Made by a program: the position numbers and the translations under genes. This document shows positions 31,172-34,944 of a DNA stretch of 64,000 nucleotides, one piece after another. This DNA is from a virus (Duplodnaviria; Caudoviricetes): IMG/VR virus record IMGVR_UViG_3300044708_000053, positions 604 through 64,603 of that record. One strand, 5' to 3'. Every line of letters begins with the position of its first letter. Within the stretch, counting starts at the first letter, position 1. The notes under the pieces were generated by a model. The model ran no database searches and had not been told where the DNA came from. It saw only the letters and a list, made by a program, of their open reading frames with translations.

Positions 31172-31279
31172 CGCCTCCCGGGGCAGCGCGGCGAATCCAA
31201 AACCCCCTCTTTAGGACTCGCTATTATCGGCAGTGCCTCTTGATTCACTGCCGCCCCTCGCTGCTGCCCTCGGGAAGCG
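31172..31279 (-). ncRNA. Candidate three-way-junction leader RNA
   Basis: 16-bp closing stem (31263-79/31172-87, one bulge, one G-U) enclosing two 8-bp hairpins (31246-53/31228-35 and 31214-21/31191-98). Confidence 0.7.
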
Positions 31280-31292
31280 TCCCACACGAGAA

Positions 31293-31372: not shown

Positions 31373-31561
31373 ATGGGACGAACAGCATCACCAGACACAA
31401 AAGTGCAGATTGCCGGACGCGTGGCCCCGGTCATTAAATTGCTCATTGACGAAATAGCCAGCAAGGAGCAGCGGACGGCCTCTCAAGCTCTGGAAATCCT
31501 GCTAAAAGAGTCGCCGCGCGTAAAGGCGAGGCTGCGCGAGGCGCGTAATGGCAAATACTGA
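31373..31561 (+). CDS. Ribbon-helix-helix (Arc/CopG-like) regulator
   Basis: Alternating beta strand KVQIAGRV followed by two helices (VIKLLIDEIASKEQRT; ASQALEILLKE). Confidence 0.65.
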   Translation: MGRTASPDTKVQIAGRVAPVIKLLIDEIASKEQRTASQALEILLKESPRVKARLREARNGKY

Positions 31562-31964
31562 ATACGGCATCGATTTAGATCTATGCCTGAGTCTGCCTTT
31601 CGGGCCAAGGCGGGCGGCGGTGAATCACTTTCCGTCGTGTGCGGCGGTCTATCTTATTTACTGGCCACCCGACACCGTCCTATATATCGGGGCAACAATC
31701 TGTCTAAGAAACCGATGTCGGCAGCACGGCTCTGTATTTGCCAAAATACGCGGGATCAGAGTGGCATGGTTTCCGTTACCCCGAAAACTACACCATGAAA
31801 CCGAGAGAAGGTTGATTGAGTTGATTAAGCCCGTTCTGAATACGCAGTACATCCCAAAGGATGTCGAGCAGACACGTAGACGTGTGTATTACAACGCAAA
31901 GGCGGTCAGAAACTTCCTGAAATCTCAGGCCAAAAAGAACGGTAATAAGAAAGCGGGGAAATAA
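31548..31964 (+). CDS. GIY-YIG nuclease
   Basis: AVYLI...LYIGAT..LRNR..QH...E..LI....P.LN. Confidence 0.85.
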   Translation: MANTEYGIDLDLCLSLPFGPRRAAVNHFPSCAAVYLIYWPPDTVLYIGATICLRNRCRQHGSVFAKIRGIRVAWFPLPRKLHHETERRLIELIKPVLNTQYIPKDVEQTRRRVYYNAKAVRNFLKSQAKKNGNKKAGK

Positions 31965-32387: not shown

Positions 32388-33062
32388 ATGCAATACGAGA
32401 TTAGTGCCGAAGTCGAGAAGGTCGCCAAAGGCGTTATCAAAGAACACCTGACCGACCTGAAAAGCAAAAAGATCGTCTATGTAACGATGGACAAAAAGGA
32501 CGATAAGACAGGCAATTCCGTAGCACAGATGCGCAAGGGCAAGCCAATCATCGGAGACATGAAGCTTGTCGGCGGGCTGAATGCGTTTCTAGCCTCTGGT
32601 GAAACTCGCACGGATTACGATGGCCCGACGCCGTTTGCGGTGCTAGTGGTCAGTCGTTTGGCGTGGGAGAAGCTGTCAGTTGAGCAGCGCCGCGCATGGG
32701 TGCATCAGCAACTGAATCGGCTGGACTACAACATCGACACCGGCAAGCCTACGCTGATCGACTTCGACGTTAAGGAATTCTCGATCATTGCCAAACTTTA
32801 CGGTGCCTGGAATGACGATCTCGGGTTGTTCCTGAAAACAGCGAAAGAACACCCTCTGTTTGATGATCTCGACAGTCGAAGCTTTGAGCCTGTTGTAGAG
32901 GAAGTAGGTGCAGAGGAAAAGGCTCCAAAGGTGGTTAAGGCCGGAAATGGTGCGGCGGACCATGTTGAAGAGGCTCCAGAAGCAGCCAAGCCAGCCGATC
33001 TTCCTTCAATCAAAGAACATGTGGCAAAGAAGCGCAGCAGACCATCGGCAAGCGCTCATTAG
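32388..33062 (+). CDS. Phage metallopeptidase-like protein with degenerate active site
   Basis: Family-like layout (W..LS.EQRRAWV, DVKEF...YG.W) but HQQLNR where HExxH is expected. Confidence 0.6.
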   Translation: MQYEISAEVEKVAKGVIKEHLTDLKSKKIVYVTMDKKDDKTGNSVAQMRKGKPIIGDMKLVGGLNAFLASGETRTDYDGPTPFAVLVVSRLAWEKLSVEQRRAWVHQQLNRLDYNIDTGKPTLIDFDVKEFSIIAKLYGAWNDDLGLFLKTAKEHPLFDDLDSRSFEPVVEEVGAEEKAPKVVKAGNGAADHVEEAPEAAKPADLPSIKEHVAKKRSRPSASAH

Positions 33063-33068
33063 TTCTCT

Positions 33069-33472
33069 TTGGTAGCGCTGGGGGCACTTTGATATTTGAG
33101 AATTGATTTTCCTGCGGCGAGCATGACGGTAATCATGCTGGTGTCGGCAGCAATGCCTAACGGTCTGGCTACGTTGGCGGCTGAAGACGAAGCGCGAATG
33201 GCGCATGAGAAAAGCCACAGTCAGGGTTTACGTGAACAACTTGATCGTTATCCCCAACTGCGGACATGCACATTCAAGATAGTAGGTTCAGCGCACGGAC
33301 ACACAGCGAAAGGGTGGGTAATCCACGATAACGAACGTAGACGTTTCTCCCGCCTGAGTCGGTATCCAATCCGGCCCGCAGGAATCCTTGATAGCGCTGG
33401 GGCGGTGACAAACCATTGGCGCTATCTTTGAGCAGGGGAGCGGATTGGTGAGGGTCCGCTCCGTTGCTCCCC
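33069..33472 (+). ncRNA. Candidate large structured RNA (about 280-nt core plus two 3' hairpins)
   Basis: Closing stem 33109-17/33376-84; hairpins 33120-39 and 33146-57 (GCAA loop); nested arm 33221-25/33353-57, 33226-32/33336-42, 33245-52/33327-34; hairpins 33390-33426 and 33430-33469. Confidence 0.65.
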
Positions 33473-33501
33473 AACTCGGTTTGGCAAGGAAGGAAAAATC
33501 A

Positions 33502-33753
33502 ATGGCACTTAAAGCAGTGAAAAAGACAAGCAAGGCGGAAGCGCGAAGCCAGAAACTTGCGGCAGCGATGCCAGAAGTGCGTGCTTTATGTGAAAAGCAC
33601 GGTCGTCCAATCGTAATGTCCTGCGTTACACGCATCGCGCAATATGAACAGATAGCCGCCAAAGCCGAGAGTTTGCGCCGTCAAGCTGCGGCACTAGAAA
33701 AGAAGTTGGTACCGGAATCTGACGCCGCCCGCAACTCAATCGGGAGTACCTAA
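33502..33753 (+). CDS. Basic helical hypothetical protein
   Basis: AAGGAAGG RBS before the ATG at 33502. Confidence 0.65.
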   Translation: MALKAVKKTSKAEARSQKLAAAMPEVRALCEKHGRPIVMSCVTRIAQYEQIAAKAESLRRQAAALEKKLVPESDAARNSIGST

Positions 33754-34220
33754 TGCCTTTACTTAACTACACTACTCAAGTTGAATCCCACAAATCCATT
33801 ACTGAAATCACTGGCATACTGAGCCGTTTCGGCGCACGAACTATCACGACGGATTATGACGAAAACGGATTCGTTAAGGGTCTTAGCTTTGTAATTATGA
33901 TCGAGGGCTTACCGCTGGCGATTCGGCTCCCAGCGAACGTAGAAGCCGTTTTCAAGGCGCTGTGCAACGCAGACGGCGTCCCACGTGCTAAACGCACGCG
34001 AGAGCAAGCGCGACGCGTCGCATGGCGCATTCTAAAAGACTGGCTGGAGGCGCAACTGGCTCTCTCTCAAGTTGGACAGGCTGAGATCGCACAAGTGCTG
34101 ATGCCTTACGCAGTCGATGCTCAAGGGCGCACCGCATACGAAGCTTTCAAAGAATCCCACATACGGCAACTAAATGCCGCACCGGATAACGTCTTAGACT
34201 TCAAAGCAGCCAACGAATAA
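33753..34220 (+). CDS. Conserved-looking phage hypothetical protein
   Basis: LNYTTQV, LPANVE, QARRVAWRILKDW; TAATG coupling with the upstream gene. Confidence 0.7.
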   Translation: MPLLNYTTQVESHKSITEITGILSRFGARTITTDYDENGFVKGLSFVIMIEGLPLAIRLPANVEAVFKALCNADGVPRAKRTREQARRVAWRILKDWLEAQLALSQVGQAEIAQVLMPYAVDAQGRTAYEAFKESHIRQLNAAPDNVLDFKAANE

Positions 34221-34251: not shown

Positions 34252-34404
34252 ATGACGCATTGCTGGAAAGACTATCGCACGCACCTTGACGGATCAAACA
34301 AGACCTGTATGCGCGAAAGCGATCACGAAGGCGATCACGAATTCGTTAGCAATGATTCAATCGTTATCACGTTTGCAGGAGACAAGGAAAACCCATGCCA
34401 ATAA
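34252..34404 (+). CDS. Small His/Cys protein (50 aa), not in ORF track
   Basis: AGGAG RBS; MTHCWKDYRTHLDGSNKTCMRESDHEGDHEF... Confidence 0.5.
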   Translation: MTHCWKDYRTHLDGSNKTCMRESDHEGDHEFVSNDSIVITFAGDKENPCQ

Positions 34405-34673
34405 CACCTAAGCAAGTCCGAATTCTGCACTTCATTTCTGGCTATATTCAGAGCAACAAACTTGCTCCAACCATTGCCGAAATTGGCAAACACTTCGGAA
34501 TGCGCTCCTCTGCGAGCGTTCATCAGGTATTAGTAGCGCTGGAGCGTAACGGGTTGATTAAGCGGATACCCAACATCAGCCGGGGAATTCAGATAGTGGA
34601 GGATTGTCATGCCAACGGAAATTATAATGAGCAGGCTGCGTCAGTTTCAAACGGCCAAGGAACGACTCACTGA
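34395..34673 (+). CDS. LexA-type DNA-binding domain protein lacking the peptidase domain
   Basis: TPKQVRILHFI..Y.....APTIAEIGKHFGMRSSASVHQVLVALERNGLIKRIPNISRGI. Confidence 0.88.
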   Translation: MPITPKQVRILHFISGYIQSNKLAPTIAEIGKHFGMRSSASVHQVLVALERNGLIKRIPNISRGIQIVEDCHANGNYNEQAASVSNGQGTTH

Positions 34674-34944
34674 GGCCCGTCAACGCGAGTTTCCAGCAGG
34701 ACGCGGCGTCCGCGTAGTCCACGAGCGGTATAACGGTTACGGTATGGTAGTGGTTGACGACGGATGCCCTATAGACCAACTGGCCGTGAAGCTTGAGAAC
34801 GGAAACACATGGTGGTATCCATTAGATAGCTGCTCACTGGCTAATCGCGATACTTGCCCGCCTTGGTTGCAACGGTTAATGAGATTTGAGGCCCGCAGCG
34901 CAACCGTGCGACGGATGGTAGCCCGAGATTCAGAGATAGCGTGA
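34609..34944 (+). CDS. Hypothetical protein (SH3-like fold possible)
   Basis: Last ORF of the rightward block. Confidence 0.5.
   Translation: MPTEIIMSRLRQFQTAKERLTEARQREFPAGRGVRVVHERYNGYGMVVVDDGCPIDQLAVKLENGNTWWYPLDSCSLANRDTCPPWLQRLMRFEARSATVRRMVARDSEIA

Follow-up and report, generated by a model that had tools for sequence, protein, structure and literature searches.

The mycobacteriophage elements MPME1 and MPME2 are ultra-small mobile elements of about 440 bp that carry a small open reading frame (ORF) and terminal inverted repeats and occur in many phages. At the level of RNA, the oop and 6S late leader RNAs of phage lambda are known as short, abundant phage transcripts. Two further systems involve extra DNA in phage genomes: morons of the HK97/HK022 type (reviewed in PMC3594210), and the PeSL cassettes of T4-type phages, in which promoter and stem-loop motifs mediate modular shuffling (PMC2839356, PMC4122927). 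The locus described here shares features with each of these systems. We consider it probable that it combines a conserved junction stem-loop with a lineage-specific, orphan, moron-like cassette of about 0.3 kb at a recombination-prone junction, and that a discrete RNA of about 250-300 nt is made from it. On this reading the locus would show cleanly, in a phage that is not of the T4 group, how a cassette is gained at a stem-loop junction that is conserved and covaries; such junctions are thought to drive phage mosaicism.

The window, that is the whole 64,000-nt stretch of DNA analysed, represents almost the whole of a 64.6-kb IMG/VR virus record with an estimated completeness of 96%. Its annotated genes are those of a tailed phage and include portal, terminase, capsid, protease, helicase, methyltransferase and exonuclease genes. 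The minus strand carries nearly every gene, and the sole plus-strand island, at about 31.3-34.9 kb, contains the interval studied here. Two genes border this interval:

32388..33062, plus strand: putative phage metallopeptidase of 224 aa (PF18894, E 2.4e-11), with 52 homologues in the protein collection
33502..33753, plus strand: downstream 83-aa gene with nine homologues at 60-87% identity and a good Shine-Dalgarno site (duplex -7.6 kcal/mol)

The first-pass annotation had described the 440 nt between them as a gap between two genes. The interval is indeed intergenic to two supported genes, but it is not ORF-free, for it contains one co-oriented frame:

33123..33431, plus strand: ORF P0001, 102 codons (111 from TTG 33096), called as a gene by a public pipeline and ending inside the conserved stem-loop

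Near each end of the interval lies a copy, one partial and one intact, of an element that is also present in relatives of this phage. Accordingly, the interval can be divided into three parts:

33060..33083, plus strand: left junction copy, consisting of the stop codon and 21 nt that include repeat copy 1 (33066-33083); 24/24 nt identical to L084 2996-3019
33084..33384, no strand assigned: insert-specific sequence of 301 nt, missing at the homologous site of L084, L096, L104 and L105
33385..33437, plus strand: right junction copy, consisting of repeat copy 2 (33385-33402) and the intact stem-loop (33390-33426); 51/53 nt identical to L084

The direct repeat (33066-83 and 33385-402) is identical at 16 of 18 nt, where by our own estimate about 0.002 such repeats are expected in 440 nt, and both of its copies match the same element in the relatives. 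Of the conserved stem-loop, the left junction copy has the left arm and the 5' flank but neither the loop nor the right arm. At the uninterrupted sites of L084, L096, L104 and L105, the left flank of copy 1 joins the right flank of copy 2 directly, and the sequence present in the window and missing from all four amounts to about 319 nt (33084-33402).

These empty sites come from four contigs of four samples, namely L084/L088 from IMG/VR (also L094) and L096, L104 and L105 from three other sequencing runs. L084 was found by a pattern scan of IMG/VR with the ORF, which matched only the last 15 codons, while L096, L104 and L105 were reached by way of proteins homologous to the two that flank the interval. 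L096, L104 and L105 share the metallopeptidase as upstream gene; L084 has a different gene there, whose stop codon is followed by the 24 nt of the left junction and then immediately by the loop and right arm. Directly after the metallopeptidase gene come two hairpins in L096 and the first hairpin in L104 and L105. The filled site is found in identical form in a second JGI sample (L092) and is bridged by an identical DNA contig of another study (X2, 32912-34070). As judged from these alignments, the comparison shows a conserved stem-loop after the upstream stop codon with a lineage-specific insert of about 319 nt placed in front of it. The direct repeat is thus an insertion scar: when the insert arrived, 18 nt comprising the 5' flank and left arm of the stem-loop were duplicated.

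Of the two positions at which the repeat copies differ, one is informative: copy 1 has G there, as does L084, and copy 2 has A, as do L096, L104 and L105. Because each copy agrees with a different relative at this position, we infer that the repeat arose when diverged copies of the junction recombined, and not as a transposase-made or fresh target duplication. The cassette would then have arrived, by recombination between two such diverged copies, between the metallopeptidase stop codon and the stem-loop, duplicating 18 nt, and would since behave like a moron-type accessory that yields a discrete RNA of perhaps 250-300 nt.

Terminal inverted repeats are absent from the insert borders, similarity between the two junctions beyond the 18-nt repeat is at chance level (27% of shuffles score as high), and the GC content of the insert (0.52-0.53) does not differ from that of its surroundings (0.49-0.57). 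Among the assembled contigs of four runs, we found no read-level joints, mini-circles or deletion forms. A transposable element (IS or MITE) was considered and rejected, as the inverted repeat found in the gap is not at the borders, the direct repeat is only 16/18 identical and the insert is single-copy everywhere searched. Diversity-generating retroelement, retron, group I intron and transposon were set aside on the grounds of no second genome copy, no Rfam match and no terminal repeats; the annotated ORFs include no reverse transcriptase. Like MPME1/2, the insert is shorter than a kilobase, has an ORF of about 100 codons and is precisely absent from close relatives; it differs from them in having no terminal inverted repeats at its borders and in being single-copy wherever it was searched for.

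Searches for relatives of the insert gave no match in IMG/VR, JGI metagenome contigs, GTDB genomes or INPHARED phages, and no second copy within the window. Comparison of the gap with 83 loci around homologues of the 155-aa gene (blastn, nhmmer and tblastn) yielded nothing, and neither did blastn of the gap against INPHARED phages; tblastn against phages returned chance matches only. Peptide-pattern scans with the ORF over IMG/VR, JGI metagenome contigs and GTDB genomes recovered only the shared stem-loop in L084.

The conserved part of the interval can be examined independently of the insert. In this phage group the stem-loop at 33390-33426 comes after the stop codon that ends the upstream gene; five sequences retain it, and it folds better than shuffles (z -3.45). 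One of its pairs is compensatory, occurring as C-G, U-G and U-A, another occurs as A-U and G-U, and three invariant G-U pairs are possible only on the plus strand. It is followed by a further structure:

33430..33469, plus strand: second hairpin with a 16-bp stem, common to L096 (z -4.44, 0/200 shuffles)

Two one-sided changes in this second hairpin keep pairing via G-U on the plus strand. The 3' part of the gap that holds both hairpins (33380-33501) has a z of -3.73, with 0/200 shuffles as good, and is the only clearly structured portion. By this pattern of substitution, the two hairpins before the downstream gene are conserved plus-strand RNA structures. Neither has the U-tract of an intrinsic terminator, the tails within 33390-33469 being short or not U-rich, and a terminator scan calls neither. 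From its position, the stem-loop may serve between gene cassettes to terminate or attenuate transcription or to stabilise 3' ends. When the 20-nt core of the stem-loop was searched in metagenome contigs, one chance match inside a bacterial gene was returned; with the stem pattern and a free loop in IMG/VR, only L088 was real.

This arrangement resembles that of PeSL cassettes in several respects: variable orphan cassettes are bordered by a conserved intergenic stem-loop, the insertions, deletions and replacements that distinguish close relatives fall exactly at this motif, and a copy of it lies on each side of the extra cassette. Unlike in PeSL, the motif holds no sigma-70 promoter (none by scan; the best hexamer pairs by eye match 7 of 12), the genome has only two copies of the motif, one of them partial, the phage is of 64 kb and not T4-type, and contigs show no mini-circle or deletion joints.

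Comparison with L084/L088 places this junction in a wider context. Aligned with these contigs, the island shows genes without homology to theirs, and between the genes lie blocks of 24-114 nt that are 95-100% identical:

30239-77, 30531-56, 31172-285, 32362-90, 33060-83 and 33385-437: blocks shared with L084/L088, flanking unrelated genes

The block at 32362-90 comprises the ribosome-binding site and ATG of the metallopeptidase gene. From this alignment it appears that genes were exchanged whole, with the conserved junctions as the exact limits of each swap. The position 3' of the metallopeptidase gene is itself variable, with the hairpin only in L096, L104 and L105 and other genes in L002, L003 and L108. 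Two further contigs, L106 (1922-2588) and L107 (701-1476), whose metallopeptidase is 88% identical to that of the window, carry at this position an ORF-poor, GC-rich stretch of about 670 nt that is identical in the two samples. This stretch is unrelated to the insert, has no Rfam match and folds like shuffles (z -1.05 and -0.12). The stem-loop marks one of several short, near-identical junctions for the exchange of non-homologous genes among these phages.

Whether RNA is made from the insert was assessed in RNA libraries. A run index listed 21 runs, with X4, X6, X7, X13, X14 and X17 as the RNA runs that contain the insert, and four of the 21 were examined; all were assembled contigs, which report presence only, neither strand nor level. 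The resulting cover is confined to the insert:

33127..33375, no strand assigned: RNA-library cover, contigs of two soil studies matching the insert only

One contig (X4, 215 nt) lies at 33129-33343 and is 100% identical; the other (X6, 255 nt) lies at 33127-33375 with five differences (98% identical). Both end without passing into unlike sequence. The shares recorded in the index, 0.19 and 0.14 over 901 nt, agree with the presence of the insert alone, and the missing contig cover of the flanking genes over a 2-kb stretch is not proof of their silence or of differential expression. Both contigs begin 4-6 nt after ATG 33123, a near-common left end that hints weakly at a real RNA end. As the RNA contigs match just the insert, some discrete RNA is probably made there.

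No promoter or terminator in the gap passes a consensus scan; by eye, only 8-of-12 hexamer candidates are present, one per strand. As with lambda oop and 6S, a short discrete RNA would come from between genes in a phage region that is otherwise quiet, and it could be antisense or a terminated leader; unlike these, the insert has a promoter and terminator only as candidates, and it bears no sequence or Rfam relationship to them.

The likeness to morons can be stated on the same basis. As with morons, extra DNA lies between features that are adjacent in relatives (the four empty sites L084, L096, L104 and L105), the extra DNA is small and lineage-specific, and its expression is seemingly apart from that of its neighbours, as seen in contigs of two RNA studies that give neither level nor strand. 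Unlike morons, the insert has no clear promoter or terminator of its own and no GC difference, its protein product is putative and no integrase is found in 38 ORFs. Since none of the 38 window ORFs scanned against PHROGs is an integrase, expression from a repressed prophage, which is typical of morons, cannot be claimed here.

An orphan 0.3-kb sequence, and not its neighbours, is what appears in RNA libraries of independent soil studies. If a discrete and abundant RNA is truly made, it would be a new RNA or micro-gene carried by a soil phage that has not been cultured. A stronger version of this reading holds that the insert encodes a stable phage RNA of about 250 nt that is new and belongs to no family, and that its cassette travels from one phage to another at the conserved stem-loop junction; the RNA would be abundant enough to assemble from small soil metatranscriptomes, unlike the neighbouring genes. 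This version we regard as rather doubtful. That the RNA is specifically a plus-strand non-coding RNA is, in our estimation, quite unlikely.

A related proposal had been made from the letters alone. The first-pass annotation described a large plus-strand non-coding RNA or leader, closed by a long-range stem and capable of two folds through the two repeat copies. All of its motifs are present in the DNA: the 9-bp inverted repeat, the small hairpins, three nested helices, the direct repeat and its partner at 33418-26. The proposed closing stem is the following:

33109-17 / 33376-84, plus strand: 9-bp inverted repeat, present

Perfect 9-bp inverted repeats occur three times in 800 nt against about 1.2 expected by our own estimate, which is unremarkable, and this one has no flanking target duplication and is unlike transposon ends. 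The existence of the named helices favours the proposal, as does the position of the RNA contigs just inside the closing stem. So do the four listed differences of the X6 variant: two fall at unpaired positions of the plus-strand minimum-energy fold and the other two preserve pairing (A-U to G-U and U-G to C-G), although by our own estimate about one in six random four-change sets would be equally compatible with the structure; these differences are too few to be decisive.

Folding energies argue against one large structure. The plus-strand fold has a z of -1.62 for 33063-33503 (6/100 dinucleotide shuffles equal or better), -0.86 for 33100-33392 (39/200 as good) and +0.08 for 33127-33375 (101/200 as good), and the long three-helix arm is absent from the minimum-energy fold. 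A folding energy no better than shuffles is what the annotation itself had named as grounds for abandoning the idea, and on these grounds a large plus-strand structured RNA is not supported.

The conformational switch fares no better. A fold constrained to pair repeat copy 1 with 33419-33426 is less favourable by 8 kcal/mol and has an ensemble probability of about 2e-5, while the local hairpin has an ensemble probability of at least 0.99. Furthermore, the upstream copy is missing from the four relatives that keep the downstream hairpin. Since repeat copy 1 is a by-product of an insertion that these four relatives lack, the switch is not supported, and a riboswitch-like two-state switch is absent. 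The large switching RNA is thus close to refuted, and we consider it very improbable. The locus illustrates that hand-found helices together with a flanking repeat can mimic a riboswitch-type RNA and yet be an insertion scar; here, the empty-site comparison and the shuffle control settled the question.

What stands of the proposed phage RNA or leader are the RNA-library contigs that match just the insert and the two conserved plus-strand hairpins before the next gene, not the large fold or the switch. The absence of a known RNA family, also proposed from the letters, is borne out: Rfam 15 covariance models searched on 6 kb and on the gap alone, with E up to 10, gave only two chance snoRNA matches (E 1 and 3.9), both far below gathering scores and outside the insert. 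Rfam gave no match on either strand of the insert, and no tRNA or tmRNA genes were found.

The RNA could instead be a message. Under this explanation, the product is a small orphan protein of 98-111 aa with a hydrophobic, signal-peptide-like N-terminus, and the RNA is its weakly structured plus-strand mRNA, in line with a plus-strand fold z of about 0. The frame runs in the direction of the operon, takes up most of the gap and is called by a public gene caller, and the cassettes inserted in phages are usually small orphan genes (PMC3594210, PMC2839356). Its codon score of 0.03 is ambiguous: among chunks of true genes it ranks in the lowest 2.5%, and it exceeds 99% of the chunks from shadow frames. 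The frame scores far above the other five and on par with other small genes in the operon, but equally high scores occur in 6 of 39 spurious open frames of comparable length. As for a start, ATG 33123 has no Shine-Dalgarno site (-1.7 kcal/mol), whereas a G-run 12 nt upstream of TTG 33096 is predicted to form a -8.4 kcal/mol duplex with the anti-Shine-Dalgarno sequence.

Other evidence weighs against the protein. It has no homologue in 5.8 billion clusters, nor by HMMER in 1.84 billion representatives, whereas the neighbouring 83-aa gene has nine. A single HMMER match among the 1.84 billion proteins, to a repetitive coiled-coil protein, was spurious and discarded. All four listed X6 differences are non-synonymous in the frame (M>V, K>Q, S>N and W>R), the last 14 codons lie inside the conserved stem-loop, and the left ends of the RNA contigs just past the ATG hint, weakly, in the same direction. 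The AlphaFold2 model (pLDDT 41) and an equally poor ESM Atlas model are uninformative and lend the protein no support. We regard the small protein as a tentative possibility, short of an even chance.

Alternatively, a structured antisense RNA may run on the minus strand from about 33377 down to 33127 and affect the rightward operon or work in trans. Within the insert, the minus strand has a somewhat better fold than its shuffles (z -2.44 and -2.33, with 2/200 and 4/200 shuffles as good), though these values are modest given that two strands and several windows were tested. A weak 8-of-12 promoter candidate, its hexamers picked by eye and its -35 in the loop of the stem-loop, would give a start at about 33377, near the right end of X6, and the minus strand is the transcribed one over most of the genome; no terminator-like structure is found near 33127. 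The X6 change at 33198, the only confidently paired one, breaks an A-U pair on the minus strand and is retained as G-U on the plus strand, and the lack of an Rfam match on either strand also counts against a structured antisense RNA. We consider such an RNA unlikely.

Finally, the insert could be functionless debris, either the remnant of a decayed gene or a by-product of recombination, with the RNA arising from read-through or as a stable degradation fragment. This would fit a sequence that is orphan everywhere searched, whose codon score and fold are near null values, and which sits at a hotspot, since the position 3' of the metallopeptidase gene holds nothing, other genes or the ORF-poor stretch of about 670 nt. 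Debris would be less expected to stay identical in three DNA data sets (the window, L092 and X2) and 98% identical in the RNA variant, or to appear in RNA-library contigs of two studies without the flanking genes; moreover, an open frame of 111 codons in such a gap has, by our own estimate, about a 10% chance expectation. Debris is in our view about as improbable as the antisense RNA, and the moron-like cassette at a conserved junction stem-loop remains our preferred reading.

Several other observations concern the island and its relatives. The block at 31172-31285 is a 114-nt non-coding sequence after a divergent promoter region, 98% identical to L084 though the flanking genes differ. A small ORF at 31548-31964 has a weak GIY-YIG match (Pfam E 0.004; PHROG endonuclease 2.4e-7) and, by this similarity, could encode a homing endonuclease that stands free within the variable island; an uncalled ORF of L096 (3241-3703) is HNH-like by eye. 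The protein encoded at 34395-34673 has a LexA DNA-binding domain only (PF01726, 2e-17), without the peptidase domain, and is 82% identical to the L084 counterpart; the 3' end of its gene overlaps a 111-aa ORF (34609-34944) by 65 nt.

With regard to the host, the sole terminase relative in species-representative genomes, at 46% identity, lies on a 7.6-kb contig of a Blastocatellia MAG (L095), a weak hint that the host is possibly an acidobacterium. On a 73-kb contig (L097, at 1293-2426), a tyrosine integrase adjoins a more distant relative (66% identity) of the 83-aa gene, which indicates that some members of the pool sharing this gene are temperate.
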